Shown here: in pieces, positions 3,678 to 36,872 of the stretch
Layout: every line of letters starts with the position of its first letter
Position numbering within the stretch: position 1 is the stretch's first letter
Source: a virus
Lineage: Duplodnaviria > Caudoviricetes
Length of the DNA: 64,000 nt
Virus record (IMG/VR): IMGVR_UViG_3300022555_000043
Coordinates: 11,398 to 75,397 of that record
Strand: one strand, 5' to 3'
Made by a program: the position numbers and the translations under genes
The notes under the pieces: model-generated
What the model was told of the DNA's origin: nothing
The model's input: only the letters and a program-made list of their open reading frames with translations
The model's database searches: none

Positions 3678-3748
3678 CGGGGTGTCTTCTAGTGGTAGGA
3701 AAACAGGTTTTGATCCTGTCAACAGTGGTTCAATCCCACTCGCCCTGA
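3678..3748 (+). tRNA. tRNA-Gln(TTG)
   Basis: Full cloverleaf: acceptor CGGGGTG/CGCCCTG, D arm TTCT-AGTGGT-AGGA, anticodon ACAGG-TTTTGAT-CCTGT, T arm AGTGG-TTCAATC-CCACT; no encoded CCA. Confidence 0.9.
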
Positions 3749-15745: not shown

Positions 15746-15751
15746 GGAAGG

Positions 15752-15778
15752 AAAGGGGGGCTATAAAGCCCCCCCTTT
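15752..15778 (+). terminator. GC-rich hairpin after the SSB gene
   Basis: AAAGGGGGGCT-ATAA-AGCCCCCCCTTT. Confidence 0.6.
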
Positions 15779-15784
15779 ATCATT

Positions 15785-16891
15785 ATGAATACCAAACAAC
15801 TACGGAACATAGAGGAGTCATTGATGGCACCAACTGAAGAGGCTAAGAAGCCTTTGTTCTTTACGACAGGTAGCACCTTGCTTGATCTTGTTGTAGGTGG
15901 TGGCGAGAAACTGAATCCTATGCAATTCGGTATGGGTTATCGTGCCGGGGACATTGTACGGGATTGGGGCAATACCTCGTCATCCAAATCATTCAAACTG
16001 TGCGAGGCTATATCGGCCAACCACTACCGCTTCAAGGACAAGTTCAAGTGGGTCTATGACGATCCTGAAGCCGGAAATAAGTTCGATTCCATGAAGCTTT
16101 ATGGATTCGATATCATCCCCAAAGACCCCGCCAAGGTTGTCCGTTCTAGGACGGTTGAAGAGTGGTATAACAACCTGAGAGATTTCTGCAACAGTCTTAA
16201 AGATGATGAGTGCGGAATTTACGGGTTGGATTCACTGGACAGCCTTAGCTCCGACGAAATGGAAGAGCGCAAGGATGAACGCTATGCCATGCACTTGAAA
16301 GGCAAGGAATTCGACGCAGGCTCCTACGGAATGGCTTCCGCCAAGTTCCTGTCCCAAGAATTCTTCCGTGGGTTATCTATTGATCTGGCAAAGAAAAATG
16401 TGTTGCTCTATGTCATCTCTCAGGAGCGCGACAACGTAAATGCTTTTGGTTTCGCCAAGAAGAACAAGTTAGGTGGTGGCCGCGCAGCAACTTTTTACGA
16501 GACTGTGCGGGTTTACAGTCAGTTGAAGCAGAGAATAGAGGTCAAGGATCGCGCAATCGGTGTCGTGATCAAGGTTGTCGCAGAAAAGACCCGTCACCCT
16601 CGTCCCTTCAGGGAATGCCTGATCCCCATCTTCTTCGAATACGGAGTTGATGACATAGGCCAGAACATTGACTTCCTATACAATCTCCGCACCCCCGAAG
16701 GAGAAATGAAGGACAAGAAAGCAGGAAAGCTACAGTGGGATAACGAGGAGCCAATGGTCAGGGATGTGTTGGTCACATACATTGAACAGAAGAGGCTCAA
16801 GGAAGAACTGCGGAATCGTGCAATCGAAAAGTGGGAGGCTATAGAGGCGGAAATCGCAGTCCAACGCCCTTTCAAGTATGAGGATGCATGA
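15785..16891 (+). CDS. RecA/UvsX-like recombinase
   Basis: TTGSTLLDLVVGG, GNTSSSKS, GLDSLDSL, SQERD and GGRAATFY motifs. Confidence 0.88.
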   Translation: MNTKQLRNIEESLMAPTEEAKKPLFFTTGSTLLDLVVGGGEKLNPMQFGMGYRAGDIVRDWGNTSSSKSFKLCEAISANHYRFKDKFKWVYDDPEAGNKFDSMKLYGFDIIPKDPAKVVRSRTVEEWYNNLRDFCNSLKDDECGIYGLDSLDSLSSDEMEERKDERYAMHLKGKEFDAGSYGMASAKFLSQEFFRGLSIDLAKKNVLLYVISQERDNVNAFGFAKKNKLGGGRAATFYETVRVYSQLKQRIEVKDRAIGVVIKVVAEKTRHPRPFRECLIPIFFEYGVDDIGQNIDFLYNLRTPEGEMKDKKAGKLQWDNEEPMVRDVLVTYIEQKRLKEELRNRAIEKWEAIEAEIAVQRPFKYEDA

Positions 16892-17295
16892 TGCGTGTGG
16901 CAAAAGTGCATGCTCCTCCCCCGGCCCCGTACACCATAAAGGAGTACGAGGCCAGCCCGTACTGGAAGAAGAAGTCGGCTACCTTACTGGATGATAAAGC
17001 CTGTACCTGTGAAATGTGTCATAGGAAACGATGGAAACATTTGCCGAGAAAAAATGCATGGAAGAAATTGCGATTCTCGGTTCACCATACGACCTACGAC
17101 AACATCCCCAACGAACAACCGGGGGATTTGCAGGTGCTGTGTTATGTCTGTCATCATTATAGTCATGTACTATTACAGCTACGGAATATATCCGAGATGT
17201 TCGAAAAGATAGCAAAGATCGTGGAGCAGTATTTCAGGTATGATAAGGACAGTTTCAAACGGCATAATGAAGATGCCAAAAGGAGGCCGAAATGA
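16888..17295 (+). CDS. HNH endonuclease
   Basis: CEMC...VHHTTY...LCYVCHHYSH. Confidence 0.75.
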   Translation: MMRVAKVHAPPPAPYTIKEYEASPYWKKKSATLLDDKACTCEMCHRKRWKHLPRKNAWKKLRFSVHHTTYDNIPNEQPGDLQVLCYVCHHYSHVLLQLRNISEMFEKIAKIVEQYFRYDKDSFKRHNEDAKRRPK

Positions 17296-17480
17296 TGTTC
17301 ACCTTATTCGGGTTTTCAGTATCTCAAGATTGGCGAACCATTGGATTGGATTTCTGTACTATATGTGGTGGAAATTTCTACGGTGGCTTGCTGTATTTTT
17401 CGAAATCAGAGTATGAACTGAACTGGGATTTCCTGTTCTTCCATTCCCTGTATAAACTTGTCAAGGCAAATCAGAGCTAA
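17292..17480 (+). CDS. hypothetical protein
   Basis: 62-aa ORF with ATGA coupling. Confidence 0.55.
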   Translation: MMFTLFGFSVSQDWRTIGLDFCTICGGNFYGGLLYFSKSEYELNWDFLFFHSLYKLVKANQS

Positions 17481-17490
17481 GGAGTGATGC

Positions 17491-18702
17491 ATGAGAGTCC
17501 CCGTAACCGGAAAAGTCTTTACCGAAGAAGACAAGCAAGCCCTCATCGACTGTATCAATAGTGGCGAGGAAATAACCTATGGTTCATATAATGTCAAGTT
17601 TGAAAAGATGCTGGCAAAGTATACCGGGGTTTCTCATGCATTCTTTGTGAACTCTGGATCAAGCGCAAATCTATTGGCTTTCGCGGCTTTCACATCCCCC
17701 GACATGTACGAGAAATGGCGAGTCCAGCCGGGGGATGAAATCATTACTTTGGCTGCCGGATTCCCTACAACTGTGGCCCCCATTGTCCAGTACGGGTGTG
17801 TCCCCGTATTCGTGGATATTGATCGGGACACGTACAACATAGACATTTCATATTTGGAAGAAGCCAGATCATCCAGAACTAGGGGTGTGTTCATTGCGCA
17901 CACTCTTGGGAACCCCTTTGCCGTAAAGACAGTAAAGGATTTTTGCACTCGTCACAACTTGTTTTTGATCGAAGATGCTTGTGACGCTCTTGGTAGCGAG
18001 TATGATCATCAGAAGTGTGGCTCCTTCGGAGATGTATCTACCTATTCCTTCTATCCCGCACACCACATCACAACGGGGCAAGGCGGGGCTGTACTGACTT
18101 CTGACCCACTGATTGCCAAGATTATCCGTTCCATGCGCGGGTGGGGCAAGGAATGCGTGTGCCCACCTAATCAGGATGATGTTTGTGGGCGTCGTTTTAC
18201 ACAGCAACACGGAAAGTTGCCTTTCGGGTATGACCACAAGTATGTATTCTCTAACTTTGGCTACAACCTTCAGGGTACAAATCTGCTGGCTGCTCTGGGA
18301 TGTTCCCAAATGAAGCACATCGAGGAATTCAGTAAGCGCAGGAGAGATAACTTTGAAGTGTTGAAATATGCTCTTCGGAATACCCGGGTCGGTATGATGG
18401 AAGCGTATGCCTCTTCCTATCCTGCGTGGTTTGGCTTCCCAATCCTATTGCCAAATTATCTAATCAGGCGTGACATAGTAAATCAACTATCTGAACGGGG
18501 AATTGAAACTCGCACATTGTTTGCTGGGAATATAATAAAACAACCTTGCTTTACTAAGAATAGTACAGTGAAATACAGACAGGTGGGGGATTTGTACAAC
18601 ACGGATTTGGTCATGGATCAAATGTTCTGGACGGGGGTGTGGCATGGACTCAGCCCCGAACAAATAGATTATCTTGCGAAGTCTTTGGTGGAGGTGCTAT
18701 GA
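17491..18702 (+). CDS. rfbH: CDP-4-keto-6-deoxyglucose 3-dehydrase (RfbH/DdhC, E1)
   Basis: DegT fold (VNSGSSANL, IEDACDALGS) with His replacing the PLP Lys (SFYPAHHITTGQGG), and the CVCPPNQDDVCG Fe-S motif. Confidence 0.9.
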   Translation: MRVPVTGKVFTEEDKQALIDCINSGEEITYGSYNVKFEKMLAKYTGVSHAFFVNSGSSANLLAFAAFTSPDMYEKWRVQPGDEIITLAAGFPTTVAPIVQYGCVPVFVDIDRDTYNIDISYLEEARSSRTRGVFIAHTLGNPFAVKTVKDFCTRHNLFLIEDACDALGSEYDHQKCGSFGDVSTYSFYPAHHITTGQGGAVLTSDPLIAKIIRSMRGWGKECVCPPNQDDVCGRRFTQQHGKLPFGYDHKYVFSNFGYNLQGTNLLAALGCSQMKHIEEFSKRRRDNFEVLKYALRNTRVGMMEAYASSYPAWFGFPILLPNYLIRRDIVNQLSERGIETRTLFAGNIIKQPCFTKNSTVKYRQVGDLYNTDLVMDQMFWTGVWHGLSPEQIDYLAKSLVEVL

Positions 18703-19193
18703 ACATACCTTCTTCGACATTCGATATAACCCAGTACACCCATTTGCGATACCATGGCAGCTTCATAATCTCAGCTTTCTGCGGTACGGGTAAGACTGAC
18801 TTCACTATCAACCACCCCCATTCCTCAATAGAACGCGAGTGCTGGAAATATCAAACCCCTGACTTCCCTCGTAATTATGTCCGCGCAATAGAAGTTTTTA
18901 TTGGGGTCAAACAGTTCATATTTATTAGTACAAACCCCTTATCCCTACACAAGCTAAACACTAAGGGTATCCCTGTACTCATGGTACTGCCTGAATTATC
19001 CTTAAAGGCTGAATACCTCGCACGATTTTTGAGGCGCGGAAGCGATATCAACTTTGTGCAAATGCTGGACAGAAATTGGGAATCGTGGCTCACTGAAGCA
19101 TACAACGAAGAAAATAACCTGCATGTTATTTTGGGTAGTGGAGAATATGTTTCCAATATTCTACATCCTATGACTCTTAGGGGGCTATTATGA
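18699..19193 (+). CDS. small P-loop kinase-like protein
   Basis: IISAFCGTGKT Walker A; start reassigned to ATG 18699 (ATGA overlap). Confidence 0.65.
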   Translation: MNIPSSTFDITQYTHLRYHGSFIISAFCGTGKTDFTINHPHSSIERECWKYQTPDFPRNYVRAIEVFIGVKQFIFISTNPLSLHKLNTKGIPVLMVLPELSLKAEYLARFLRRGSDINFVQMLDRNWESWLTEAYNEENNLHVILGSGEYVSNILHPMTLRGLL

Positions 19194-20185
19194 AACTGCC
19201 TAATCCGAAATTCTGGGAAGGGAAGCGGGTACTCGTCACTGGTGCTGAAGGCTTCAAAGGCAGGTGGATGGTTCAATGGCTTAGCAAGCTTGGTGCTATA
19301 GTTGAAACCAATGAAACTATAGATATCTGCGATTACGAAGCCATGAAAAACATCATTTTCAAATTCGACCCCGAAATTGTCATCCATATGGCAGCAGTCA
19401 GTACAGTACAGGAAGCTTTCGAGAATCCTATGGAAGCTATCAGAACCAACGCAATGGGCACAACTACGCTACTGCAAATTCTGAAAATCCACAATATGTG
19501 GAGTAGTGTGAAAGCCATCGTCAATGTAACAACCGATAAAGTATATCATGTTGTTGGGGCAGAACGAGGGTGTGAAGAAACCGATCCTTTGGGCGGTTTG
19601 GAAATGTATGCTGTAAGCAAAGTCTGTTCCGAACATATCAGCAAGGTGTACCAGAAAACATTTAAGTTACCTATCGTCACTGTCCGGGCTGGAAATGTAA
19701 TCGGGGGTGGGGATTTTAAGCGTTCCAGAATAATTCCTAACTACTATTTTGCCCAATTGGAAAACACCCCTCTGGAAATCAATGCCACAGCTATCCGTCC
19801 TTGGCAATACATACTGGATTGCTTATGCGGCTATTTGCTGTTGTGCGAAAAATTATATAATAACGACGCCTATACAGGCGCGTGGAATTTTGCATCCAAT
19901 GAATTCGAAAGCCGTTCTGTAGAATGGATTGTTAAAGAAATGAACAAATATTTTGATCATCCTATAGATATTGCCCGTATCAATTCCAGATTATATTATG
20001 AAACCAACACTCTTAAATTGAACAGCAGAAAGTCTCACGATGTGTTGCAGTGGACACCCAAATATGATATGCAGGAAATGGTGCGCCGAACGGCAGAGTG
20101 GTACAGAAATTACATGATGGGGCATAGTGCAGAAGCCTTGAATGAATTCGAAATCAATGCTTATATGAATGAGGGGCAGGAATGA
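19190..20185 (+). CDS. rfbG: CDP-glucose 4,6-dehydratase
   Basis: FWEGKRVLVTGAEGFKGRW, TTDKVY, YAVSK, RAGNVIGGGD and RPWQY motifs. Confidence 0.9.
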   Translation: MKLPNPKFWEGKRVLVTGAEGFKGRWMVQWLSKLGAIVETNETIDICDYEAMKNIIFKFDPEIVIHMAAVSTVQEAFENPMEAIRTNAMGTTTLLQILKIHNMWSSVKAIVNVTTDKVYHVVGAERGCEETDPLGGLEMYAVSKVCSEHISKVYQKTFKLPIVTVRAGNVIGGGDFKRSRIIPNYYFAQLENTPLEINATAIRPWQYILDCLCGYLLLCEKLYNNDAYTGAWNFASNEFESRSVEWIVKEMNKYFDHPIDIARINSRLYYETNTLKLNSRKSHDVLQWTPKYDMQEMVRRTAEWYRNYMMGHSAEALNEFEINAYMNEGQE

Positions 20186-21966
20186 AAATCGCGGAATACA
20201 TCGCCCAAAAACTTCATGAATTAGGGATCACTCAAGTATTCTCCGTTGTTGGTGGGGGAGCGATGCATCTCAATGATGCTTTCGCCAATACTTCGGGGAT
20301 CAATGTCACCTATATGCACCATGAACAGGCATGCTCCATTGCCGCAGAGGGCTATCAGAGAGCCAGTGGCAAGACAGCCTGTGTAGTGGTGACTACAGGC
20401 CCGGGCGGATTGAATACCCTTACGGGGGTTATGGGACAATGGACAGATTCTATCCCAGTCATTTATGTATCGGGACAAGTGAATGAACTTACCACTGTCG
20501 AGGGCACAGGTCGGAGAGAACTGCGCCAACTGGGTGATCAGGAAGTCCATATAATTGATGTAGTCAAACCGTTGACTAAGATGGCTAAAACCTTAGAGAA
20601 TGATAAATATCTTGAATGGAATATTGAGAAGGCATGGTGGTCAGCACATGCTGGGCGACCCGGGCCTGTTTGGTTGAACGTCCCATTAAATGTACAGGGT
20701 GCGGAATTCAAACCTGCCAGTATCCATTATGAACCGCTCCCTCCCAAAGACATGCCGAACGAACATATCGAATTCATTCTTAGTATGATCAACAAAGCAA
20801 AAAGACCATTGATTATAGCGGGGCATGGAATACGGATAGCCAAAGCCTGCGCCGCATTTAAAAGTTTCGCATCCTTTGCAAATATACCTGTCGTTACTAC
20901 ATTTAATGGATTTGATCTGTTGACATCCAAACATTGGTGCCACATGGGTAACATCACCAACTTAGGTCATCGTGCTGCCAATTTCATATTGCAGAATGCT
21001 GATGTCATTCTCATTCTTGGAAGCCGAAACAACATTCGGCAAGTCAGTTACAAATGGGAAAACTTCGCTCCCAATGCTATTAAGATGTGCATTGATATAG
21101 ATAATTGGGAATTGCAAAAACCCACCATCCATATACAACATCAATTTCATGCCGATGTGAAATCTTTCTTGACTGGGGCATTAAACCATATGTTCCTGCA
21201 ACCTTTAGCCAAACATACAGAATGGTTGGCATGGTGCCAGAAGCTCAAAGAAAAATACCCCATCATGCAAAAGAAGTTTTCCGATGATTCGGATGGGATC
21301 AACTTGTACACTTTTTTCAATAAAGCTACCAAGAATATAAAACCTCTTACGATTGGGGTGGCAGGAAATGGTAGTGCCTGTGTAGGGTTATTCCAAGCAG
21401 GCGTGGTTACAAATGCATCCCGCTACTTCTGGAATTCTGGTTGTGCTGCAATGGGGTATGCACTTCCTGCAGCAATAGGGGCATCTATAGCAACGAAGCG
21501 TCCTGTGTGGTGTTTCGATGGAGATGGTAGTTTTCAACTCAATATTCAGGAACTCCAAACCATTGTCCAGCATAAACTGAACGTTACCATATTCTATCTC
21601 AATAATGACGGCTTTTCTTCGATCAAACAAACCCAAGATAATTTCTTTCATAGACGCGCAGGCTGCGATCCTGCTAGTGGGATTACATTTCCTCGTTTGG
21701 AAAGTATTGCCCAAGCTTACGGCATTACGTATATTAAATTGTACAACCATAAAGATGTCGCATATTGGACAAAAATGGACATAAAAGGCCCGATTATCTT
21801 TGAAGTAATGCTCCAAAAGGACTATTCTTTCGAGCCTAAACTAGCACCAAAGATGCTGGAAGATGGTACGATAGTAGCTCCATCATTCGAAAACATGTAC
21901 CCGTTTCTTCCCCAAGAAGAAATTGACGCGAATATGATAGGAGGGAAGAATGAAAAACCCGTTTGA
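20182..21966 (+). CDS. thiamine-diphosphate-dependent carboligase (ALS-like, YerE-like)
   Basis: HHEQA, TTGPGGLN and the GDGSFQLNIQEL...NN ThDP motif. Confidence 0.88.
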   Translation: MKIAEYIAQKLHELGITQVFSVVGGGAMHLNDAFANTSGINVTYMHHEQACSIAAEGYQRASGKTACVVVTTGPGGLNTLTGVMGQWTDSIPVIYVSGQVNELTTVEGTGRRELRQLGDQEVHIIDVVKPLTKMAKTLENDKYLEWNIEKAWWSAHAGRPGPVWLNVPLNVQGAEFKPASIHYEPLPPKDMPNEHIEFILSMINKAKRPLIIAGHGIRIAKACAAFKSFASFANIPVVTTFNGFDLLTSKHWCHMGNITNLGHRAANFILQNADVILILGSRNNIRQVSYKWENFAPNAIKMCIDIDNWELQKPTIHIQHQFHADVKSFLTGALNHMFLQPLAKHTEWLAWCQKLKEKYPIMQKKFSDDSDGINLYTFFNKATKNIKPLTIGVAGNGSACVGLFQAGVVTNASRYFWNSGCAAMGYALPAAIGASIATKRPVWCFDGDGSFQLNIQELQTIVQHKLNVTIFYLNNDGFSSIKQTQDNFFHRRAGCDPASGITFPRLESIAQAYGITYIKLYNHKDVAYWTKMDIKGPIIFEVMLQKDYSFEPKLAPKMLEDGTIVAPSFENMYPFLPQEEIDANMIGGKNEKPV

Positions 21967-23038
21967 AAACCTCTTTGTGTTGGAAATGGCAAACAACCAT
22001 CTTGGTAGTGTAGAACGAGGACTGGCTATCATCAATCAATTCGCCCCCATCATTCACTACAACAATGTCAAAGCCGCCATCAAACTTCAATTCAGGGATG
22101 TAGATCATTTCGTTCATGAAAAATTCAAGGGTAACAAAGATATTCGATACATCAAGAAAACGGAAGATACCCGACTCACCACAGCAGAATACGGTACTTT
22201 GGTACAGGCTATTCGAAGGGTCGGGGCAATCCCTATGGCAACCCCATTTGATGAAAATTCCGTTGATCTGTGCGTGTCTTTGGGAATGGATATCATCAAG
22301 ATCGCCAGTTCCGATATCAACGACTGGTTCCTGCTCAAGAAAATAGCTTCAACACGGTTACCTGTTATAGTGTCTACGGGTGGAGCTTCGGAAAAAGACC
22401 TTGATGCGATAGTAGATTTCTTCGATAACCGTAGCATTCCCATTGCCATCAACCACTGCGTTTCGCTCTATCCTTCGGAAGATTGGGAATTGGACTTGGA
22501 TCAGATCGACTATCTCAAACAGCGGCATCCCGGGCATGTTATTGGCCTATCCACCCATGAATACCATGATTGGGCGGCTTCCATGTTGATTTCCTATGCC
22601 AAGGGTGCCCGTACATGGGAACGGCATGTTGACATTATTACCGATGATGTCACACCCTCTCCCTATTGTTCCATGCCTGCGCAGATAGATGTATGGTTCA
22701 AGGCTTTCCATAAAGCTAGGGAAATGTGTGGTGGGAAAAATATATCCCGGCGTTTCATCCCACAAAAGGAAACGAAGTATCTGGATGCTTTAGTTCGTGG
22801 TGTTTACGCGAAACGGGACTTGGAACCCGGATATGAATTCTCCAATGAAAAAATGACCGATGATTTCTACTTGGCAATTCCCTTGCTGAAAGGTCAGCTT
22901 TCCTGTAGGGAGTTGGTCAATAATGAAGTCTTAGTCAATCCTATCAAAGCCAATGAACCCCTCATGCTTGGACATGTGGGGGGTGTGTATCGAGACAACG
23001 AGCAACTTAGGGCACTAATAATGCAAAGGGGACTCTAA
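21950..23038 (+). CDS. NeuB/PseI-family PEP-dependent ulosonate synthase
   Basis: EMANNH, ATPFD, KIASSD, STGG, HCVSLYP, GLSTHE and ERH motifs; C-terminal SAF-like RGVYAKRDL. Confidence 0.88.
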   Translation: MKNPFENLFVLEMANNHLGSVERGLAIINQFAPIIHYNNVKAAIKLQFRDVDHFVHEKFKGNKDIRYIKKTEDTRLTTAEYGTLVQAIRRVGAIPMATPFDENSVDLCVSLGMDIIKIASSDINDWFLLKKIASTRLPVIVSTGGASEKDLDAIVDFFDNRSIPIAINHCVSLYPSEDWELDLDQIDYLKQRHPGHVIGLSTHEYHDWAASMLISYAKGARTWERHVDIITDDVTPSPYCSMPAQIDVWFKAFHKAREMCGGKNISRRFIPQKETKYLDALVRGVYAKRDLEPGYEFSNEKMTDDFYLAIPLLKGQLSCRELVNNEVLVNPIKANEPLMLGHVGGVYRDNEQLRALIMQRGL

Positions 23039-23709
23039 TGCGGACACTTATTCTTGGTGGAACAGGAGACATCGGCAGTAGTATTTGTTCTAAACTCGAA
23101 ACCTTTCTTGGTGCGGATATCCAAGCCGTAGGCAGCGCAGATTTTCGCCTACAGGAGCCTTCAGAGATAGAAAGCTTTTTCAATAAAAACGGCAACGATT
23201 TCGACACCATTATTCATGCAGCAGGCTATAACAAGGTGCTTCCCATTGAAGATATCGATTATTTTGAATTCCAGTATTCTTGGGAAGCCAACGTACTCGG
23301 ATTCTTGCAGACTGTACAAAAATGCCTCCCCTACTGGAAACAACGCAAACATGGACGCATTATAGTTATCGGTTCTTTATATAGCGAGATTGCGCGAAAG
23401 AACCGCTTACCTTATGTCATGGCGAAGCATTCATTATTCGGGGCTGTACAGGAACTGGCTTTGGAATTGGCCCCTTATGGGGTAACAGTTAATATGGTAT
23501 CCCCGGGATATATTGACACTGGACTGACACGCCAGAATAACGATCCCGAAACCTTAGCGGATATTATCTCTCGCATCCCTTTAAAGCGACTGGGAACCCC
23601 GGAAGATATTGCCGAAGTAGTTGCTTTTCTAGCCTACAATGGATATTATATCACAGGACAGAATATCGTTGTAGACGGTGGCTATTCAGCCGGGGGTTTC
23701 CAGAAATGA
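23038..23709 (+). CDS. short-chain dehydrogenase/reductase
   Basis: GGTGDIG, YVMAK, VNMVSPG and ITGQNIVVDGG motifs. Confidence 0.9.
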   Translation: MRTLILGGTGDIGSSICSKLETFLGADIQAVGSADFRLQEPSEIESFFNKNGNDFDTIIHAAGYNKVLPIEDIDYFEFQYSWEANVLGFLQTVQKCLPYWKQRKHGRIIVIGSLYSEIARKNRLPYVMAKHSLFGAVQELALELAPYGVTVNMVSPGYIDTGLTRQNNDPETLADIISRIPLKRLGTPEDIAEVVAFLAYNGYYITGQNIVVDGGYSAGGFQK

Positions 23710-24851
23710 CGTTTCAAGTGGATGATGTAGAGTTCCCGGTAGACCATGATTGCCTCAGTCCCATTGCATCCATTCCAAAAGAATACAAGGTGCAAATACT
23801 CCCTATTCAAAACATGATTCCGCGAATTACTACAGACATAATTTCTCGCGCCCACCCCGTCATTCTGGTTGATTCTTTCATCTACGATAGATATAATACC
23901 TTACTACCTTTCGATAAAATCCCCACGTTCCTTATAGAATCAAAGGAACAGAATAAAAATCTCGATTCGGTGTTGGACATCATGCATTTCTTCAATAAAC
24001 ATAAGGTGACCAAGGGATCAACTGTATACGTCATTGGCGGGGGTATCACTCAAGACCTTGGAGCATTTGCATGTGCTATTTACAAACGAGGTATTCCGTG
24101 GGTGTTTGTACCCACCACCTTGCTTTCCCAAACAGACAGTTGCATTGGTGGCAAAACAGCCCTCAATATTGGGGCTAACAAAAATCTACTGGGCCTGTTT
24201 TCCGCCCCTTCAGAAGTGATTATCTGCCCATATTTTTTAGACACACTACCTATGAATGCCATATACTCAGGTTTAGGAGAAGCTTTCCGACTGAGTATTA
24301 CGGGAGGATATGAACTTTTTAAAATGTTTGACCGACACGCCAGATATGTGATAAAAGAAACTGATTTTGTTGCTCTGGAACGCATTATTTCATATGCATT
24401 ATCTGTCAAGAAATCCATCATTGAATATGACGAATTTGAAACAAACGTTCGTAAAGTAATGAATTACGGGCACACAATCGGTCATGCTCTGGAAGCCGCA
24501 ACTCGATATGAAATTCCCCACGGTATTGCTGTGACAATAGGCATTATGGTAGAAACAGAATTGAGTACCAGATTAAAACAGTGCCCTTCTAATCATCAAG
24601 ACATGATCATTGAACTGGGTTGTGCCCTCGTTCCCGAACAAAAAACGAACATGTTACGAACTATTACAGCGGATATGCTGGTTCCGTTTATTCTCCAAGA
24701 CAAAAAAGCTGTCGGAAGTATTATCAAAATGCCTATGTTTTATGGATTCGGAGAAATGCATATTGATGATGTAGAATTTAATGAGGCCACAATGATTGAA
24801 TTACGCCAAGCATGGAATTATGTTTTGTGCCGTTTAGGAGTGCCGGAATGA
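23706..24851 (+). CDS. 3-dehydroquinate-synthase-like sugar-phosphate cyclase
   Basis: GGGITQDLGAF, PTTLLSQTDSCIGGKT, NYGHTIGHALE and HGIAV motifs. Confidence 0.85.
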   Translation: MTFQVDDVEFPVDHDCLSPIASIPKEYKVQILPIQNMIPRITTDIISRAHPVILVDSFIYDRYNTLLPFDKIPTFLIESKEQNKNLDSVLDIMHFFNKHKVTKGSTVYVIGGGITQDLGAFACAIYKRGIPWVFVPTTLLSQTDSCIGGKTALNIGANKNLLGLFSAPSEVIICPYFLDTLPMNAIYSGLGEAFRLSITGGYELFKMFDRHARYVIKETDFVALERIISYALSVKKSIIEYDEFETNVRKVMNYGHTIGHALEAATRYEIPHGIAVTIGIMVETELSTRLKQCPSNHQDMIIELGCALVPEQKTNMLRTITADMLVPFILQDKKAVGSIIKMPMFYGFGEMHIDDVEFNEATMIELRQAWNYVLCRLGVPE

Positions 24852-26077
24852 ATGTATTATTGTTGGATTTGGGCGCTAGTAGAATCAAAGCCTGCTTGTA
24901 TTCCGCACATAAAGAAGAAATACACATGTCTTGCGAATTTGAGACTCCTCAACCTATGTACCTTCCTAAAGGTAAAGTCGAGGTAGACCCTTATGCATAC
25001 ATCCCTATTTTAAATGCTATTATAGAACAGGCACAACCATTTGGCATAGATCGAATGTGGTTGTGTTCCGAAATGCACGGAGTAATTCTTTTGGATGGCG
25101 ACAACCATCCCATTACCAACTACATCAGTTGGAAAGATTCTCGTGGTTCCACTAAAGGAATCGACGCATCCATATTTAAAAACATAACTGGAATGACCGT
25201 ACATCAAGGATTACCAATTCTCACAATAAGGTATATGTGCAAACATAAACAGCTACCCGAAACATTCCGTATGTGTTCTTTAATTGACTGGTTGTTGATT
25301 GAATATGGTAATGATGTAGCTGCAGCAAATGCTACTATGCTATTAGGCACAGGATTGTACGGGCTACACTCACAGGCGTATGCCCCATATCTATTCCACA
25401 TGATGGGCATTAAATGTAGTCAGATCAAATCCTCTCCCATAGTCCCTCTTGGCACTCGTCTAGGATTGATTCGCGGAATTCCTGTTTATGGTGGTATAGG
25501 AGATTTGCAAGCCGCAATTGCTGGATCAGTGCAAATAAATCATAACATCCTTATTAACTTGGGAACAGGATCGCAAATCATAACGCCTCAGCAGATAGGC
25601 TCTCCTTTTACGGAACTTCGCCTTGGTGCGAGAAATGAATGTTTTTCCGCAATCACGCACATTCCTTGTGGAAGAGCATTAAATGTTTTCGCTAAGTTCA
25701 TAGGGGAAGAATTATTTTGGAAATGTATGCCTGACTTGGAACCGAAGAATATTTTAGCCGCTAGTATAGGAGTAGGTTTGGATGTTGGTTCTGGGCAGGG
25801 TGTCATATATCATATCAAGGAAGGAGAATTTAATCTCAATAATCTCATGCATGGTATTGCATTAAGTTGGCTAAAGCAATATACTGATCGAATAGAGACA
25901 GTTGACCCCTTGTGTCAATGCCCAACTATATATGTGGCAGGAGGTCTAAGCCGCAAATTACCATTTGTGGTTCCTGTGTTGGAAGCATTAACGAATAGGC
26001 AGGTTGGTTTAGTGCGCCCAATGACTGGCGAAGAAACCCTTGATGGTCTGCTGTTTTTGGCAAAGGAGAATATGTGA
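24848..26077 (+). CDS. FGGY-family carbohydrate kinase
   Basis: LDLGASRIKA, SEMHG, ISWKDSR, GDLQAA and NLGTGSQ motifs; start reassigned to ATG 24848. Confidence 0.8.
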   Translation: MNVLLLDLGASRIKACLYSAHKEEIHMSCEFETPQPMYLPKGKVEVDPYAYIPILNAIIEQAQPFGIDRMWLCSEMHGVILLDGDNHPITNYISWKDSRGSTKGIDASIFKNITGMTVHQGLPILTIRYMCKHKQLPETFRMCSLIDWLLIEYGNDVAAANATMLLGTGLYGLHSQAYAPYLFHMMGIKCSQIKSSPIVPLGTRLGLIRGIPVYGGIGDLQAAIAGSVQINHNILINLGTGSQIITPQQIGSPFTELRLGARNECFSAITHIPCGRALNVFAKFIGEELFWKCMPDLEPKNILAASIGVGLDVGSGQGVIYHIKEGEFNLNNLMHGIALSWLKQYTDRIETVDPLCQCPTIYVAGGLSRKLPFVVPVLEALTNRQVGLVRPMTGEETLDGLLFLAKENM

Positions 26078-26727
26078 ATTACCGATTGTATATCAAAACT
26101 ATGTTTTCCGTCATCAAAGCATACGGTGTAAACATTCCGATAATGGATAAAGCAGGAGTAGGATATGGGCATTTGGAAGCCATAACCTATGACTACAAAT
26201 ATAGTCGCCCGTGGCTACCAAAATTGCTGGGCGATTGGAGAAGGGCAAACCCTTCATTATCAGCCAGTCAATTCGAAATCACCGAAGCCAACACGACAGC
26301 ATGGTTGGATAAACTTGTACTGTTCCGACCTGACCGAATCCTGTTCATGATCATTGATAATGAAGGAAACCAGATAGGGCATATAGGATACTCCTCATTT
26401 GATTTCGAACATGGAACTGCCGAAATAGATTGTGTTCTAAGGGGTCAGAAAACCCCATATCCTATGATGACGTATGCACTGGACTGTTTAATAAAATATG
26501 GATATGATAAACTAAAATTGAGGATCATCAATCTTTCGACAATGGCAGACAATACAAAATCTACACAACTCTACCAACGATGCGGTTTCAAAATCATGAG
26601 GGACATCCCTTTATTCAAGCACACACTTCCGACAGGGGAGATTCGTTGGGACGAAGACCTTACAAAAAATTCAAGCGAAACAGATAAATGGGGTGTATAC
26701 ATGTGCCATATTAAGGAGTCAACATGA
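26074..26727 (+). CDS. GNAT N-acetyltransferase
   Basis: IGHIG...AEIDCVLRG...NTKSTQLYQRCGF. Confidence 0.8.
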   Translation: MNYRLYIKTMFSVIKAYGVNIPIMDKAGVGYGHLEAITYDYKYSRPWLPKLLGDWRRANPSLSASQFEITEANTTAWLDKLVLFRPDRILFMIIDNEGNQIGHIGYSSFDFEHGTAEIDCVLRGQKTPYPMMTYALDCLIKYGYDKLKLRIINLSTMADNTKSTQLYQRCGFKIMRDIPLFKHTLPTGEIRWDEDLTKNSSETDKWGVYMCHIKEST

Positions 26728-27836
26728 ACAAGAAGATCAGTTTTGCAGGCCCATGGATTACCGACAAAGAGATAGACTTCGTACTGGAAGCTGCCCGGGA
26801 CGGGCATTACGAAATCTTCGACAAGTACATCAAGAATTTCGAAGCGGAAGCCCGAAAGTATTTTGGTGTCAAGTATGCCATAGGCACCCACTGCGCAACA
26901 CATGCCCTGCATCTTGCCTGTGCCGCTATTGGATTGAAGAAGGGCGATGAAGTGATTGTCACCGATCACAGTTGGTCGGCCACAGCCTTTGCCGTCACCT
27001 ATACGGGTGCTACCTGCATCTTTGTGGATATTGATCCTGTCACACTGTGTATCTCCCCTGACGCTATCGAAGCGGCAATTACTCCCCAAACCAAAGCTAT
27101 CATGATGGTACACAATTTCGGAGTTCCTGCAGATATGGTGGAAATCATGTCTATTGCACAGAAATACAACCTTCGTGTCATCGAAGATGCCGCGCCCGCA
27201 TTAGGTTCCTTGTACTACGGTCAAAAATGCGGAACCATTGGAGATGTCGGCTGCATCAGTTTCCAAGGAGCGAAAATAGCGATCAGCCAAGAAGGTGGCC
27301 TGCTCATCACCAATAATAAGGAAATCTATGATCGTGCATTGCTTCTTTCTTCTATGGGACGCACAGACAGCGAAGCCCCTTTCTGGTGCGATGAAGTAGG
27401 ATTTCAGTATACCATTGGGAGCCTTCCTTCCGCTATGGCAACCATCCAGTTACAGCGGATTGACGAATTGATTGACAACAAACGCAAAATCTATTCGTGG
27501 TACAAAGCTCGTTTGGAAGATAGCATATATTGCCATATGGTGCATGAAAAACCGGGAACCTTTGCCAACTACACGTATCCTTCCATCTGGCTGTATGATC
27601 ATGTCGGAAAATCCAATACGCGAATCATTGCCGAATTGAAAACCCTGAATGTCCATTGCAGGCCGGGATTCCCCCCTATGAGCCGCTTCCCAATGTACAA
27701 AGACGATCAGCGGTTTGAAAACCCCGTAGCCTACAAATTCTGGAAACGTGGAATTGTGCTTCCTGCAGCGCACAACCTTGTCAGGGAAGACATTGATTTT
27801 GTCTGTGATAACCTTAACCGTATTGTAAGGGGGTGA
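26724..27836 (+). CDS. DegT/DnrJ/EryC1/StrS sugar aminotransferase
   Basis: IEDAAPALGS and SFQGAK with the PLP Lys intact. Confidence 0.9.
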   Translation: MNKKISFAGPWITDKEIDFVLEAARDGHYEIFDKYIKNFEAEARKYFGVKYAIGTHCATHALHLACAAIGLKKGDEVIVTDHSWSATAFAVTYTGATCIFVDIDPVTLCISPDAIEAAITPQTKAIMMVHNFGVPADMVEIMSIAQKYNLRVIEDAAPALGSLYYGQKCGTIGDVGCISFQGAKIAISQEGGLLITNNKEIYDRALLLSSMGRTDSEAPFWCDEVGFQYTIGSLPSAMATIQLQRIDELIDNKRKIYSWYKARLEDSIYCHMVHEKPGTFANYTYPSIWLYDHVGKSNTRIIAELKTLNVHCRPGFPPMSRFPMYKDDQRFENPVAYKFWKRGIVLPAAHNLVREDIDFVCDNLNRIVRG

Positions 27837-27837
27837 T

Positions 27838-28554
27838 ATGACCTACAACTTCCGCATCTACATCTCATTTGCCAGAAATATGGAACTGCTGAACAAATGC
27901 ATTGATTCCGTAGTTCCCCAAATAAGGGAATTTTCTACATGGAAAGGTAAGAAAATCGTAGTGATCAATGATTCCGGGGAAGACATCCGTGGACAATGCC
28001 ACTTTCCCGATGAAGTTGAAATCTACGAAATGCCCTATCGAATCAAACTCAGTCCCGCCATTATGGGAGATTGGGTTGTAAAGGATGCCTTCTACACCAA
28101 TCAGCCGTTCGCCATGACCCTACATACCGATGCCGAACTGTTGCCCGGAGCAATGAAGGATATCCTCGATAAAGCCAAGGAGATAGAAGGAACCAAATGG
28201 GGAATGCTCTTCGGTGGTGCTGGATGGCAAGTATTCGCCCTTTATAACCCACGCTTCTTTGTGGATGAAAATGTCTGGCATGATCCCTATCTCTTCCCTT
28301 TCTACTATCAGGATAACCACCTCTACAGGATCATGACCCTGAGAGGGTGGTATGTAACACAATCTGATTCAAAAATCCCCACTATTATCCACAAAAGTAG
28401 CCATTATCTCAAAGAAGACCCTATCTTTAAACGCAAAAATGATATAGCATTCCCAGCACATGGTTGGATTTACGCACAGATTTGGGGAGGCTTGCCCGGG
28501 TATGAAACATCTGTCGATCCCTACGCAGCGGGCACGTTGCCGAAAAAGGTCTGA
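27838..28554 (+). CDS. putative GT-A fold glycosyltransferase (GT2-like)
   Basis: LLNKCIDSV, VVINDS, LHTDAE and FYYQDN motifs; cluster context; no TM segment. Confidence 0.6.
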   Translation: MTYNFRIYISFARNMELLNKCIDSVVPQIREFSTWKGKKIVVINDSGEDIRGQCHFPDEVEIYEMPYRIKLSPAIMGDWVVKDAFYTNQPFAMTLHTDAELLPGAMKDILDKAKEIEGTKWGMLFGGAGWQVFALYNPRFFVDENVWHDPYLFPFYYQDNHLYRIMTLRGWYVTQSDSKIPTIIHKSSHYLKEDPIFKRKNDIAFPAHGWIYAQIWGGLPGYETSVDPYAAGTLPKKV

Positions 28555-28557
28555 CAC

Positions 28558-29346
28558 ATGATCTGCGAATGTTTCTACTTCTGGAACGAACTCGACCTCT
28601 TGGATGCCAAACTTCACGAACATAGTGGAGTAGTGGATCGGTTCGTCCTATTGGAATTCCCAACATCCTTACGGCATATCCCACAACGTCTGCAATATGA
28701 GGAGAACAAAGAAAGATTCAAAGAATTTCAAGACAAGATATTCCATATCGTAGGCCCAAACGATCATCCAGAATTGTACGGGCTGAATTTATTGTTCGCC
28801 AGACATAAGAATTATCTCACTGGATTGGCAGATTGCGCTCCCAATGACATCATCATCCTATCTTCTCCTGATGTGATATGGAAAGCCTCTACGCTGGAAC
28901 AATTGAAAACAATAGACATGGAAAATTCCAGTGTTCAATTCGTTGCCGATTGGTATAGTTACTACATGGATTTTTTCTGCACCGAAATTAAATATGATTT
29001 TGATGGGGCTTGTCTATACAAACATCTGAAATACCACAATTCAAACAATCGCCCCCTCATTCCTGTAGGAACCAGAATTACCGATGCGGGATGACATTTC
29101 TCCCATCTTGGTGGTGTGGATAAAATACTTGCTAATCTTCATGGGCACCCACACACGGAAATGGATAATGAGATAACCCGAGACAGGGCTACTATGATCA
29201 TGAAAATGGGACAAGGATTTGCTTGGGGAGCGAGTGGGGGATATAGAAAGGTAATGCAGTATGTACCTCGCAACCCACAAAACTATCCCGCTTACATCAA
29301 CGACCATCCCGAAATCTTCGGAAAATATTTCAGGAACAAGGAGTAG
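28558..29346 (+). pseudogene. GT17-family glycosyltransferase interrupted by one in-frame TGA (29092-29094); pseudogene, readthrough or sequence error
   Basis: N-terminal CFYFWNELDLL...VDRFVLLE; the frame continues DAG-TGA-HFSHLGG, matching the family GWHFS motif, and stays open to 29346. Confidence 0.75.
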
Positions 29347-29349
29347 ACA

Positions 29350-30729
29350 ATGAAGACTAAGGTTCTGTGCTGGCTTGATTCTCCCACCTGTGCAACAGGT
29401 TTCGGACAGGTCGCCAACAATGTCCTGAAGCGACTTTATGCCACGGGACTGTATGAATTCGACATCATAGGGATCAACCATGCGGGCGATCCTTACGACA
29501 CCACTCAGTACCCCTATCGCATCTTTCCCGCAGTTGCCCCTCTTTCTGGGGATGACAAGATGCGCACGGATGTGTATGGATTCCAAAAGATGCTGTTGTT
29601 CGCTGGTATGGGGCGCTACGATATCGTGTTCATCCTCAATGACACCTTCGTCATCAACGCTATTATAAAACCCCTTCTTGAAGCACAACAGAAGATGCCC
29701 AAGGACAAGAAATTCGAAATCATCACGTACTTCCCTGTCGATTCTCCTCTCAAGAAAGAATGGGTAGACAACGTGGTATCTTCCATTTCATTCCCGGTCA
29801 CTTACACCAACTACGCTTTCAAGGAATGCCTCAAACACGACCCCGGACTCAGCAAGAACCTCAAAGTCGTTTACCATGGAGTAGACAAAAACATTTTCTT
29901 CCCCATAGGAGAACCTGCCAAATTGAAGAGGGAAATCCTTGGGCCAGATCACTGCCAGAAATACGTTGTTCTCAATGTAAACCGCAACCAGCCCAGAAAA
30001 GACCTGCACAGGACATTTGCAGGCTTCAAGATTTTCCATGAAAAGTACCCCAACACCCTACTGTTCATTCTGGCACAATCGCAGGATGTGGGAGGCGATC
30101 TGATGGAAATTGCCAAGAGTTATGGCTTGGTTTGGGACAAAGATTGGGTTTGTCCTGCCCCGGGAAGCTATGGTGCCAACCAAGGCTATCCTATTGCAGT
30201 AGTCAATAAAATCTACAATGCTGCCGATGTCGTCATTTCCAGCACTCTGGGCGAAGGATGGGGACTGAGTATTTCCGAAGCCTTCGCTACCATCAAACCC
30301 GCTATTTTCCCCGACAACACCAGCCTCCATGAAATCATTGGGGAAAATTCGGAACGTGGTTGGTTCATCAAATCCGGGGAAGACCTCGACCATTTCACCT
30401 GCCTTGGATCGGCTGACAACAACCAAGTTCGCCCAACCATCAACGTCTTCTCTCTGGCCGATCAACTGGAATATGTATACACCCATCCTGAAGAAGCGCA
30501 GGCCAAAGCAGAGAGGGCGTATAGTGAAGTATGGGTTTGGGATGACCTGTGCAAGACTTGGGCCGAAATATTCGCTCAAGCCAGCAAGAAAGTAGTTACC
30601 ATGCGCTCGGACATCAAAGTTGAACGCAACGCCCCGTGTCCTTGTGGTTCGGGCGAGAAGTGGAAGCATTGCTGCGGAGCTTCCTACGTACGATCTGCCA
30701 CTGGGGAACTCAAAAAGATTGTAGATTAG
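29350..30729 (+). CDS. GT4-like (GT-B) glycosyltransferase with C-terminal SEC-C motif
   Basis: [21 protein letters not shown] and [10 protein letters not shown] motifs; [18 protein letters not shown]. Confidence 0.88.
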
Positions 30730-30730
30730 C

Positions 30731-30788
30731 TTGACTCAAATCAGAACATATGATATATTAAAGGCAGGTCGCAAGGCTTGCCTTTAAT
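30731..30788 (+). promoter_or_regulatory. sigma70-type promoter whose -10 overlaps a 14-bp hairpin
   Basis: TTGACT-N17-TATATT with extended TG; hairpin ATTAAAGGCAGGTC-GCAA-GGCTTGCCTTTAAT at 30757-30788. Confidence 0.65.
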
Positions 30789-30802: not shown

Positions 30803-32038
30803 ATGCTTAAAACCGTCGATATACAGAACTTCCAGAGCCACAAAAACACCCATCTGGATTTAACAAACGGTGTAAATAGCATCATTGGAATTTCGAACCA
30901 CGGGAAAACATCCATACTCAGGGCGATCAACTGGGTCATTACCAATCGTCCTTCGGGGGAAGCTTTCGTATCCAACTTCGTGCGCGATGAAAAAGGCAAC
31001 CAGAAAGAAGACTGCATTGTTACCTTGACCACCGATACTCATGTTGTATCCAGAGTGCGCGGTGCCAAGCGAAACCTCTACATCTTGGATGGCAAAGAAT
31101 TGGAAGCCATAGGAATGGCCGTTCCCCAAGAAATACAGGATGCTCTCAATTTCTCCACCGTGAACATCCAAGCCCAAATGGAAATGCCCTTCCTCTTAGC
31201 AAGCACTGCCGGAGAGGTCGCTCAGTTCTTCAATCGAATCGTCCACCTCGACACAATAGACACCTATCTTTCCGATATTGAAAGTAAGAAGCGGGCAACA
31301 AAAAGTGAGTTGGAATTAGCCCGCACCAATTTAAAAAGCACTGAAGATGATCTAGCCAAATATGATTGGGTAGATCGTGCGCAAGAACTTATGGCAAAAC
31401 TCAAAGATGCCAAAGAACGATCCACGGCTCTCTTCGCGCAATACGAACAACTGCGCCAATCCATCAAAGCATATCAGGAATACGCTGAAATCATTGAACA
31501 GTCTTCTGTGGTTGACAAAGCCATAACCATACTGGAACATGTAAAAGATTGCAAAACTCGACAGCAAACCTATCTCCAAGAATACCACATCCTTCACGAT
31601 TCCATTTCCTCATACAAAGAATTCGATAAGTTCCTACAATCCATTCAATTCATAGACAAGGCTGTACTCCTGTTGGGATCATTAGAAACCTTACAGAAAA
31701 GACGGGATGCTTTACGAACCACCGCAAATAATCTAGCCTCTCTTATGAATGATTTCATTCGCAACCAGAAAGACATTGAATCTGCCTCATGTGTGACATA
31801 TGCCGAAAAACTGATCAAAAAAATCAGTGGTTTGCAAGCCAATAAGGTAGGATTAAAGCTAATGCACAGTAATCTGTGGGCATCCATTGAAGAATACAAA
31901 CTCTACCAACAAACATTGGATGCTTTCGAAGGAGAATTCGCTGTATTGAAATCACAACTTCCTGCAACATGCCCTTCTTGTGGGCAACCCCTATCAGCAG
32001 ACTATCTCGCGGAACATGTAGGAGCTTCTCATGGATAA
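30803..32038 (+). CDS. SbcC/Rad50/gp46-like ATPase, N-terminal half
   Basis: IQNFQSH, Walker A GISNHGKT, Q-loop IQAQ, coiled coil, and CPSCGQ zinc hook at the C-terminus. Confidence 0.85.
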   Translation: MLKTVDIQNFQSHKNTHLDLTNGVNSIIGISNHGKTSILRAINWVITNRPSGEAFVSNFVRDEKGNQKEDCIVTLTTDTHVVSRVRGAKRNLYILDGKELEAIGMAVPQEIQDALNFSTVNIQAQMEMPFLLASTAGEVAQFFNRIVHLDTIDTYLSDIESKKRATKSELELARTNLKSTEDDLAKYDWVDRAQELMAKLKDAKERSTALFAQYEQLRQSIKAYQEYAEIIEQSSVVDKAITILEHVKDCKTRQQTYLQEYHILHDSISSYKEFDKFLQSIQFIDKAVLLLGSLETLQKRRDALRTTANNLASLMNDFIRNQKDIESASCVTYAEKLIKKISGLQANKVGLKLMHSNLWASIEEYKLYQQTLDAFEGEFAVLKSQLPATCPSCGQPLSADYLAEHVGASHG

Positions 32039-32918: not shown

Positions 32919-33160
32919 TGGACGATAGAACACTGGCGAACATCACCAGCAAGGTAGAGCAACTCAAGCAGAAGAAAGCCCGGGCGGAAGGCGGAATGGA
33001 AACAGTCACCAAGGATTGGAAGGCCCGTTACGACCTCAATACCCTTGAGGAAGCCCAAGCGAAGGAAGTCTCGGTCAACGAACAAATGGTAGCCGTAGAT
33101 AAAGAGACGGAGGAGTATTTCGCAGAACTGGTTGGACTGGCTAACTGGAACTTGATATGA
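32918..33160 (+). CDS. coiled-coil protein, possibly the middle segment of the split SbcC
   Basis: 80-aa helical ORF coupled to both neighbours. Confidence 0.6.
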   Translation: MDDRTLANITSKVEQLKQKKARAEGGMETVTKDWKARYDLNTLEEAQAKEVSVNEQMVAVDKETEEYFAELVGLANWNLI

Positions 33161-36870: not shown

Positions 36871-36872
36871 TT

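Follow-up and report, generated by a model that had tools for sequence, protein, structure and literature searches.

In an uncultured, siphovirus-like phage with a complete genome, 13 co-oriented genes form an island at positions 17491-30729 of the stretch of DNA analysed here, hereafter the window (64,000 nucleotides, i.e., bases 11398-75397 of the 75,397 bp IMG/VR record IMGVR_UViG_3300022555_000043). The explanation preferred for this island, to which slightly less than an even chance is given, is that of a swappable sugar-synthesis cassette attached to a conserved set of soluble glycosyltransferases, where the phage would assemble a caryophyllose-type acyl-branched sugar from a precursor bound to cytidine diphosphate (CDP) and transfer it, within the cytoplasm, to an acceptor that is most likely a virion protein; gene content, family assignments, the comparative pattern and the lack of membrane parts are observed, and step order, product and acceptor are inferred. 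This reading draws on the enzyme families encoded, on an operon found in bacteria together with membrane export proteins that the viral copies lack, and on relatives of the phage in which the same transferases accompany different sugar cassettes.

An earlier note, made from the letters alone, had described 13 genes in this interval, all of which are found on the + strand. Its family assignments are upheld for most of them by Pfam or NCBIfam matches and, for the two without a Pfam match, by structure or features, as follows:

17491-18702, + strand: RfbH, an E1-type CDP-6-deoxy-4-hexulose 3-dehydrase (NCBIfam RfbH 551 bits, cut-off 423)
18699-19193, + strand: small P-loop kinase, predicted, with a Walker A motif (open reading frame (ORF) list start at GTG 18639; ATG 18699 overlaps the RfbH stop)
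19190-20185, + strand: RfbG-like CDP-glucose 4,6-dehydratase (TIGR02622 276.8 bits, cut-off 278.45; Pfam GDP_Man_Dehyd, Epimerase)
20182-21966, + strand: YerE/JanthE-like thiamine diphosphate (ThDP) carboligase (three TPP domains)
21950-23038, + strand: synthase of the NeuB family, phosphoenolpyruvate (PEP)-dependent, distinct subfamily (Pfam NeuB 121 bits)
23038-23709, + strand: short-chain dehydrogenase/reductase (SDR), member of a conserved five-gene operon (adh_short_C2 136 bits)
23706-24851, + strand: sugar-phosphate phospholyase or cyclase resembling dehydroquinate synthase (DHQS), with both DHQS domains (DHQ_synthase, DHQS_C)
24848-26077, + strand: FGGY-family sugar kinase (FGGY_N 52 bits; ORF list start 24812; ATG 24848 overlaps the DHQS stop)
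26074-26727, + strand: GNAT N-acetyltransferase (Acetyltransf_3, Acetyltransf_4, Acetyltransf_1; weak PseH match)
26724-27836, + strand: DegT-family sugar aminotransferase (DegT_DnrJ_EryC1 307 bits; closest to LegC and PseC), with the pyridoxal phosphate (PLP) lysine (Lys184) kept
27838-28554, + strand: small soluble GT2-like (GT-A) glycosyltransferase, 238 amino acids (aa), no Pfam match
28558-29346, + strand: GT17-like glycosyltransferase, interrupted (Glyco_transf_17 E = 3e-13; in-frame TGA 29092-29094)
29350-30729, + strand: GT4 (GT-B) glycosyltransferase with a C-terminal SEC-C zinc motif (Glycos_transf_1, SEC-C)

The genes are tightly packed, their junctions consisting of overlaps of 1-17 nt or gaps of 3 nt at most, and ATGA overlaps at 18699 and 24848 yield starts for the P-loop and FGGY genes that are preferable to those of the ORF list; the 421-aa form of the FGGY kinase that would begin at 24812 is not on record. 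Cluster proteins are present on 14-16 independent contigs and UvsX, SbcC, the capsid protein and the portal on 13-16, and the G+C content of the island equals that of its flanks. A chimeric assembly, a possibility raised in the earlier note, is thus rejected, since the contig counts of the island match those of core genes and the G+C content is the same; the island is a stable part of the complete phage genome. A promoter-like site lies at 30731-30759, between the GT4 gene and an SbcC-like gene, and the promoter and terminator scan returned counts no higher than in shuffled sequence.

Respective to the membrane, a Kyte-Doolittle scan over 19 residues, which is a crude test, finds no transmembrane (TM)-like segment in the cluster proteins, as had been claimed, and the highest hydropathy value among them is 1.74, in a single window of GT4. 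In the complete genome, neither an NTP_transferase domain nor the FNR-type NAD_binding_1 domain is matched, which bears out the reported absence of the RfbF cytidylyltransferase and of an E3 reductase, the latter being excluded because it would need NAD_binding_1. The pathway would draw on host CDP-glucose, and the need for an E3 was overstated, as general host reductases may serve. The phage is likewise devoid of Gtr-type parts, i.e., GtrA, membrane GT2 and GT-C, and the lone small multi-TM protein encoded elsewhere has no Pfam match. This 145-aa protein (L003:5655-6092, outside the window) displays several TM-like segments, is maybe holin-like and is not GtrA by Pfam.

Predicted route to an acyl-branched sugar

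In the keto-sugar branch, RfbH aligns a His with the PLP lysine of its DegT paralogue, and its Cys residues C164-X57-C222-X-C224-X7-C232 are conserved in bacterial homologues, a spacing we take to be the [2Fe-2S] iron-sulfur motif of E1. RfbG falls 1.7 bits short of the curated cut-off; its scores with the dTDP- and GDP-specific models are much lower still. From these sequence features, RfbG and a true E1-type RfbH should together yield a CDP-4-keto-3,6-dideoxyhexose. The P-loop protein encoded between them has a Walker A motif, AFCGTGKT, that is invariant in 9 homologues; its structural model (predicted local distance difference test (pLDDT) 90) gives weak fold matches (TM-score about 0.5) to adenylate, guanylate and gluconate kinases, and the ESM Atlas matches it to phage 'nucleotide kinase' clusters, so that it looks like a nucleoside monophosphate kinase- or gluconate kinase-like fold as modelled.

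Among solved structures, the ThDP enzyme, which would join the keto-sugar to its side chain, comes closest to JanthE of Janthinobacterium sp. HH01 (PDB 8RPH, 340 bits; also 8RPI and 8RPJ), acetolactate synthase scoring 230 bits. The alignment with JanthE is full-length, C-terminal extension included, and the two differ in the ThDP motif, namely CDG in JanthE and the usual GDG in the phage enzyme. JanthE is a YerE-like enzyme that accepts ketones, converting keto acids and ketones to tertiary alcohols, and its physiological substrates are not established in the literature (PMC12188165, PMC12247030). By sequence, the phage enzyme is predicted to belong to the same YerE-like subclass of ketone-accepting carboligases.

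Regarding the donor of the side chain, the NeuB-like synthase best matches the SpsE-like structure 3g8r among PDB entries (217 bits, as opposed to 72 bits for NeuB) and is 64-68% identical to its operon partners in bacteria and viruses. A Pse/Leg nonulosonic acid pathway was rejected, with PseI at 103 bits (cut-off 340), NeuB at 100 bits (cut-off 400) and the partner genes missing; CTP_transf_3, i.e., a CMP-synthetase, had no match among the scanned proteins, and no whole-genome search was made for it. No pyruvate aldolase of HpcH or BphI type was found among the scanned phage proteins, where the NeuB-like synthase occupies that place. The FGGY kinase co-occurs with NeuB in the operon. As for the DHQS-like protein, it scores 295 bits against TIGR04425 (cut-off 400) and 263.5 bits against aroB (cut-off 305) and, in the PDB, 141 bits with true DHQS and 91 bits with 2-deoxy-scyllo-inosose (DOI) synthase. 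A 3-dehydroquinate synthase of the shikimate pathway was also rejected, aroB being below cut-off and no other shikimate gene being present among the scanned proteins. Judging from the conserved operon described below, the NeuB-like synthase, the FGGY kinase, the DHQS-like enzyme and the SDR would make the keto acid that becomes the side chain in a branched sugar of caryophyllose type, and the donor would be a trihydroxy, methyl-terminated keto acid like the one proposed for caryophyllose.

The whole route would then comprise (i) 4,6-dehydration of host CDP-glucose by RfbG and 3-deoxygenation by RfbH, with electrons from a host reductase, to CDP-4-keto-3,6-dideoxyhexose, (ii) in parallel, condensation of PEP with a small aldose by the NeuB-like synthase to a 3-deoxy-2-ulosonic acid, (iii) phosphorylation of the terminal hydroxyl of this acid by the FGGY kinase, (iv) removal of the phosphate by the DHQS-like enzyme through oxidation, elimination and reduction, (v) reduction of the resulting ketone by the SDR, giving a polyhydroxy 2-keto acid that ends in a methyl group, (vi) decarboxylation of the acid by the ThDP enzyme and its addition to C4 of the keto-sugar, giving the caryophyllose-type acyl-branched sugar, (vii) formation of a second, acetamido sugar, or tailoring of the first, by DegT and GNAT, and (viii) assembly of a short glycan on a cytoplasmic acceptor by the GT2-like, GT17-like (possibly inactive) and GT4 transferases. 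In the seventh step, the second sugar would probably be made from the RfbG product, unless the first one is tailored instead; GNAT has no match in any of the 160 DHQS-seeded loci described below and, as is DegT, lies outside the conserved operon.

The transferases themselves are assigned as follows. The GT2-like protein reaches a feature score of 0.98 in the ESM Atlas and TM-scores of 0.74-0.81 with GT2-like clusters, its feature matches being mostly viral, and it shares 39-52% identity with the product of the gene preceding GT4 in relatives of the phage. At the TGA site of the GT17-like gene, uninterrupted homologues (259-262 aa) have Trp in three cases and Tyr in one; the 178-aa form is encoded on 15 contigs and is the sole form on record, with no read-through form, and the genome holds no suppressor tRNA able to read this TGA. 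Its sole tRNA gene, for tRNA-Gln(UUG), is located at window positions 3678-3748. The gene may represent a stable truncation, a read-through or a two-piece enzyme. GT4 has more than 1190 homologues, the nearest of which also carry SEC-C, and a profile search with it retrieved more than 528 stretches in viral contigs; scans of the viral contigs with single proteins, i.e., GT4 or the DHQS-like query, returned nothing and profile queries were needed. The model of GT4 (pLDDT 91) has the chlorovirus NY2A transferase 3OY2 as best fold match, then MshA, BshA, PimA and PglA, and no mycobacteriophage match was obtained for GT4 at E = 1e-3.

Acyl-branched sugars have been brought under a unifying scheme, in which CDP-4-keto-3,6-dideoxyglucose and an aldolase-made 4-hydroxy-2-keto acid are joined by a YerE-like enzyme and the product is reduced (Steitz et al. 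2022, PMC9306805). With the pathways of yersiniose (YerE/YerF), erwiniose (ErwE/F/I/J) and caryophyllose (MMAR_2331-2333), the phage shares the dehydratase, the E1 3-dehydrase, the YerE-like ThDP enzyme, a reductase and a keto-acid-making enzyme. It differs from them by a donor branch made of a NeuB-family synthase, FGGY and a DHQS-like enzyme instead of a pyruvate aldolase, by the lack of cytidylyltransferase and E3, by its viral location and by soluble transferases in place of envelope export. If true, this would constitute an uncharacterised branch of rare-sugar synthesis, where relatives of sialic acid synthase, sugar kinases and dehydroquinate synthase feed a ThDP carboligase. There is interest in YerE-like enzymes as catalysts that give chiral tertiary alcohols, and viruses are described as unexplored territory for them in a 2025 review; no published description of YerE-like sugar cassettes in viruses was found.

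The operon in bacteria and viruses and the swapped cassettes

A profile built from DHQS-like homologues was used to fetch 80 viral and 80 bacterial loci, which were compared by tblastn and ORF clustering. In both sets, the NeuB-like, ThDP, SDR, DHQS-like and FGGY genes make up a conserved operon that recurs in ~60 bacterial and ~60 viral loci. Among the bacterial loci (L084-L163), it occurs in Elusimicrobia, Spirochaetes, Proteobacteria (including Legionella and Coxiellaceae bins), Actinomycetota and Firmicutes (Lachnospiraceae), and the operon is there contiguous with a nucleotidyltransferase (RfbF), RfbG, RfbH and a 294-aa reductase or epimerase. At L119:5251-20960, for instance, the order RfbF-RfbG-RfbH-reductase-SDR-DHQS-FGGY-NeuB-ThDP is followed by GtrA, a two-TM GT2 and a 13-TM protein. 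Membrane parts of the bacterial loci thus include a 313-aa two-TM GtrB-like GT2 (38 loci), GtrA-family proteins and an 836-aa 13-TM protein. In the 80 viral loci, on the contrary, neither GtrA, the two-TM GT2, the 13-TM protein nor the nucleotidyltransferase is found, and a protein with at least four TM segments occurs in 3 of 80, compared with 50 of 79 bacterial loci. The membrane-free state is therefore a general property of the viral copies. If the reading is right, viruses capturing a bacterial surface-sugar pathway leave out membrane export and the initial activating enzyme and join what remains to soluble transferases specific to phages. The bacterial operon, for its part, may be the physiological context of JanthE-type enzymes.

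Some loci are variants, with an HpcH aldolase in place of NeuB and FGGY and with DHQS, SDR and ThDP kept; such aldolase versions are found in 26 viral loci. The lack of a kinase in these variants fits, because an aldolase taking an already phosphorylated aldehyde would need none, and the HAD phosphatases present in some loci fit phosphorylated intermediates.

The loss of RfbF also bears on another explanation, according to which the island would be decaying cargo, i.e., a recently captured, non-working bacterial cassette without cytidylyltransferase and with one transferase broken. The in-frame stop in the GT17-like gene and the missing RfbF and E3 speak for it, but RfbF is lost in 80 of 80 viral loci and its absence is thus a feature of viral versions rather than a mark of decay; moreover, the twelve intact overlapping genes are identical on 14-16 independent contigs and keep their catalytic hallmarks, which leaves this explanation scarcely credible.

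In an unrooted tree of the five proteins, the phage is placed beside a proteobacterial locus (SH-like approximate likelihood ratio test (SH-aLRT) 99), apart from a viral clade of 19 rows and a second viral clade of four rows. The labels fit at least three separate captures by viruses, the tree being unrooted and its clades untested. Other viral records correspond to large tailed phages with terminases, to very incomplete records and to three giant-virus bins. No other genes of the 80 viral DHQS loci are common with this phage and they are therefore not its relatives. The giant-virus bins (GVMAG contigs L013, L041 and L054) carry a DHQS-like gene with ThDP and SDR partners, and the clade L004-L007 is found on records rated 2-16% complete, probably of very large viruses. 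Among 50,697 deposited phage records, a tblastn search with the ThDP and DHQS-like proteins gave only matches of ~30% identity annotated ilvB/aroB, which look like contaminating host genes, the hits themselves not having been inspected. A near-DNA search of the island against deposited phages gave no match.

True relatives are found in L168-L173 and L192, which share gp32, UvsX, SbcC, SbcD and an ATPase with the phage in the same order. The island of the phage is flanked by the following genes:

15785-16891, + strand: UvsX/RecA-like recombinase, left flank (Pfam RecA), at the same position in relatives L168-L173 and L192
30803-32918, + strand: SbcC-like ATPase and SbcD-like nuclease, right flank (AAA_23/SMC_N, Metallophos), kept in relatives

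The gene at 16888-17480, which had been labelled 'HNH' on the left flank, has no family match. In all these relatives, a GT2-like and a GT4 gene occupy the same site between UvsX and SbcCD, where the sugar cassettes differ; in L170 (complete, 73.6 kb), this site holds only an RmlD-like reductase and an enzyme of UDP-GlcNAc 4,6-dehydratase type. The transferase pair thus serves as a constant anchor, accompanied by a variable sugar cassette. A further relative, L176, has a portal 58% identical to that of the phage and, directly upstream of TerL and the portal gene, a sugar cluster (L176:68-11254) comprising RfbH, RfbG, an Fe-S protein, a HAD phosphatase, an HpcH aldolase, a ThDP enzyme, a reductase, a methyltransferase, GT2 and GT4, i.e., the canonical aldolase version of the acyl-branched scheme. 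The Fe-S protein of L176 is LdpA-like and could replace E3.

A fixed transferase pair with a swapped cassette would, if confirmed, be the pattern expected of a surface-exposed glycan under selection. Taken further, the island may be 'serotype'-like, providing a particle coat whose outer sugar is exchanged between relatives and is, in this phage, a caryophyllose-type sugar of ~12 carbons made by a route running from the NeuB family through FGGY and the DHQS-like enzyme to a YerE-like ligase; as part of the same proposal, which is doubtful when taken as a whole, this route would also explain the bacterial surface-sugar operon and perhaps the physiological role of JanthE-type enzymes.

Candidate acceptors of the predicted glycan

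From the missing TM segments, a cytoplasmic acceptor had been proposed in the earlier note. The comparison with bacteria strengthens this proposal, as the core pathway comes there with GtrA, GtrB-like and 13-TM proteins and in viruses without them, but the argument from TM segments was overstated. The transferases of O-antigen and core synthesis are for the most part soluble or peripheral enzymes working on lipid-linked intermediates, hence the lack of TM segments is compatible with a host surface glycan. Such transferases being normally soluble, a host lipid-linked glycan is a serious, if unlikely, rival: the soluble transferases would add the rare sugar to lipid-linked intermediates of O-antigen, core or capsule, host flippases and ligases would export it, and the cell surface would be altered, e.g., blocking superinfection or stopping progeny from sticking to debris.

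On the side of this envelope remodelling, the pathway originates in surface-glycan loci of bacteria, with a proteobacterial locus as closest relative, the PimA and PglA fold matches of GT4 use lipid-linked acceptors, GT4 and GT2 enzymes of lipopolysaccharide synthesis normally lack TM segments, and the SEC-C motif of SecA binds membranes and partner proteins. Sugar clusters of cyanophages are also usually read in this way (PMC12801897); the T4-like cyanophages P-SSM2, S-SCSM1 and S-SCSM2R, lytic and aquatic, likewise carry large blocks of epimerases, dehydratases and soluble transferases (PMC12801897). The present phage differs by its 75-kb, siphovirus-like genome. The opposing evidence is that viral copies systematically lack the Gtr-type membrane parts used by bacteria for this sugar, that GT4 homologues often lie within head modules, which are expressed late, and that the phage is probably virulent, since no tyrosine integrase was found in the genome and it has its own replication machinery. 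Serotype conversion of temperate phages by GtrA/GtrB/GtrX is likewise a phage-borne modification of glycans, and bacterial copies of the pathway use GtrA and GtrB-like proteins, but the present phage has neither GtrA, membrane GT2 and GT-C nor an integrase.

DNA had been the other cytoplasmic acceptor put forward, the transferases glycosylating phage DNA against restriction or CRISPR. This fits the position of the island in the replication and recombination arm, near UvsX, SbcCD, the polymerase and a deoxynucleoside monophosphate (dNMP) kinase fusion, and glycosylation of DNA indeed uses soluble GT-A and GT-B enzymes (Pyle preprint). However, known DNA sugar pathways cluster with hydroxymethylase/TET-type genes (Pyle preprint), and the complete genome contains no thymidylate-synthase-type hydroxymethylase, TET/JBP or C5-methyltransferase (no match to PF00303, PF12851 or PF00145), and five relatives, of which two are complete, lack PF00303 as well. 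DNA glycosylation is therefore unlikely, this part of the claim is not supported, and hypermodification of DNA is considered very improbable. T4 beta-glucosyltransferase is not among the listed fold matches of GT4.

A virion protein is then the best remaining option, tentatively adopted at a little under an even chance on the strength of gene neighbourhoods and a fold match only. It is favoured because GT4 homologues often stand beside head genes and because the best fold match is a chlorovirus enzyme. In Synechococcus phage S-CBS4, whose capsid, protease and portal are 31-35% identical to those of the phage, the GT4 homologue has the portal gene on one side and the protease/capsid genes on the other and is followed by a 'galactosyl transferase' weakly matching the GT2-like protein; in Microcystis phage Mae-JY09, it comes after the capsid gene with one gene between; and in Tetrasphaera phage TJE1 (GT4 45% identity), it is the last gene of a small sugar cluster, which four hypothetical genes separate from the terminase genes downstream. 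Across the 80 viral loci, the portal gene is within four genes of GT4 in 19, and in this phage GT4 is not beside structural genes.

Several points weigh against this explanation. Regarding the acceptor, GT4 has an exonuclease gene beside it in 17 of the 80 loci, exonuclease or helicase genes together accounting for 17 or more, and lies just past tail genes in ~18, it is located in this phage in the replication arm, the structural proteins are devoid of a Ser/Thr-rich C-terminal tail of the mycobacteriophage kind, and the further fold matches of GT4, i.e., MshA, BshA, PimA and PglA, act on small-molecule or lipid acceptors. Regarding the pathway, the phage has one SDR for two proposed ketone reductions, one of its three transferases is interrupted by a nonsense codon, the source of CDP-glucose rests on a host and no host could be named, and glycan, sugar nucleotide and acceptor are predicted from genes alone. 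The DHQS-like enzyme may also be a true cyclase giving a carbocycle, which is the main alternative for that step. In this case, the product could be a small molecule, i.e., a glycosylated cyclitol or soluble metabolite acting on the host or on competitors. A kinase, a sugar-phosphate cyclase, an aminotransferase and an acetyltransferase together have an aminocyclitol-like logic, and MshA and BshA, the best cellular fold matches of GT4, glycosylate small molecules; the DHQS-like protein is, however, nearer to DHQS than to cyclitol synthases and the bacterial operon is joined to RfbF-RfbG-RfbH and Gtr-type export, hence to a surface glycan, so that such a product is improbable.

With a virion protein as acceptor, the particles would leave the cell coated, and glycan-coated virions would bear on phage stability, adsorption, grazing and immune recognition. 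Comparable systems exist in the capsid glycans of chloroviruses, the fibril sugars of mimivirus and the capsid and tail-tube glycans of mycobacteriophages (Freeman et al. 2023), where virus-encoded cytoplasmic transferases and the viruses' own rare bacterial-type sugars are reported, as predicted for the phage. The latter differs by being known from genes alone, by having no C-terminal acceptor tail and by carrying its island in the replication arm.

Genome of the phage

The record ends in 91-bp direct terminal repeats and its completeness is rated 100%. The closest cultured phage by portal protein reaches 34% identity, and the hosts of the portal matches are mixed. Its main gene sets are the following:

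~39-59 kb, - strand: virion and packaging genes, for tape-measure protein, major head protein, protease, head-morphogenesis protein, portal and large terminase
+ strand: replication arm, with primase, two helicases, DNA polymerase, dNMP kinase-DUF4406 fusion, UvsY, gp32-like protein, UvsX/RecA and SbcCD-like proteins

Within the replication arm, a recombination set of T4 type (UvsY, gp32-like, UvsX; window 14265-16891) is embedded in this siphovirus-like genome; its gp32-like and UvsX genes are separated by a strong terminator-like hairpin (15755-15774). The gene that immediately follows the DNA polymerase encodes the dNMP kinase fused to DUF4406, which is nucleoside 2-deoxyribosyltransferase-like (12445-13362); no modified-base pathway was found. 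The SbcC-like ATPase looks split into an N-terminal half (30803-32038) and a 214-aa ATPase matching the SbcC C-terminus (33157-33801), with SbcD (32031-32918) sitting between the two pieces, a layout kept in L168-L171 and L192. On the - strand, at window positions 35938-37880, a homing endonuclease gene of GIY-YIG type adjoins a DNA-repair exonuclease gene.

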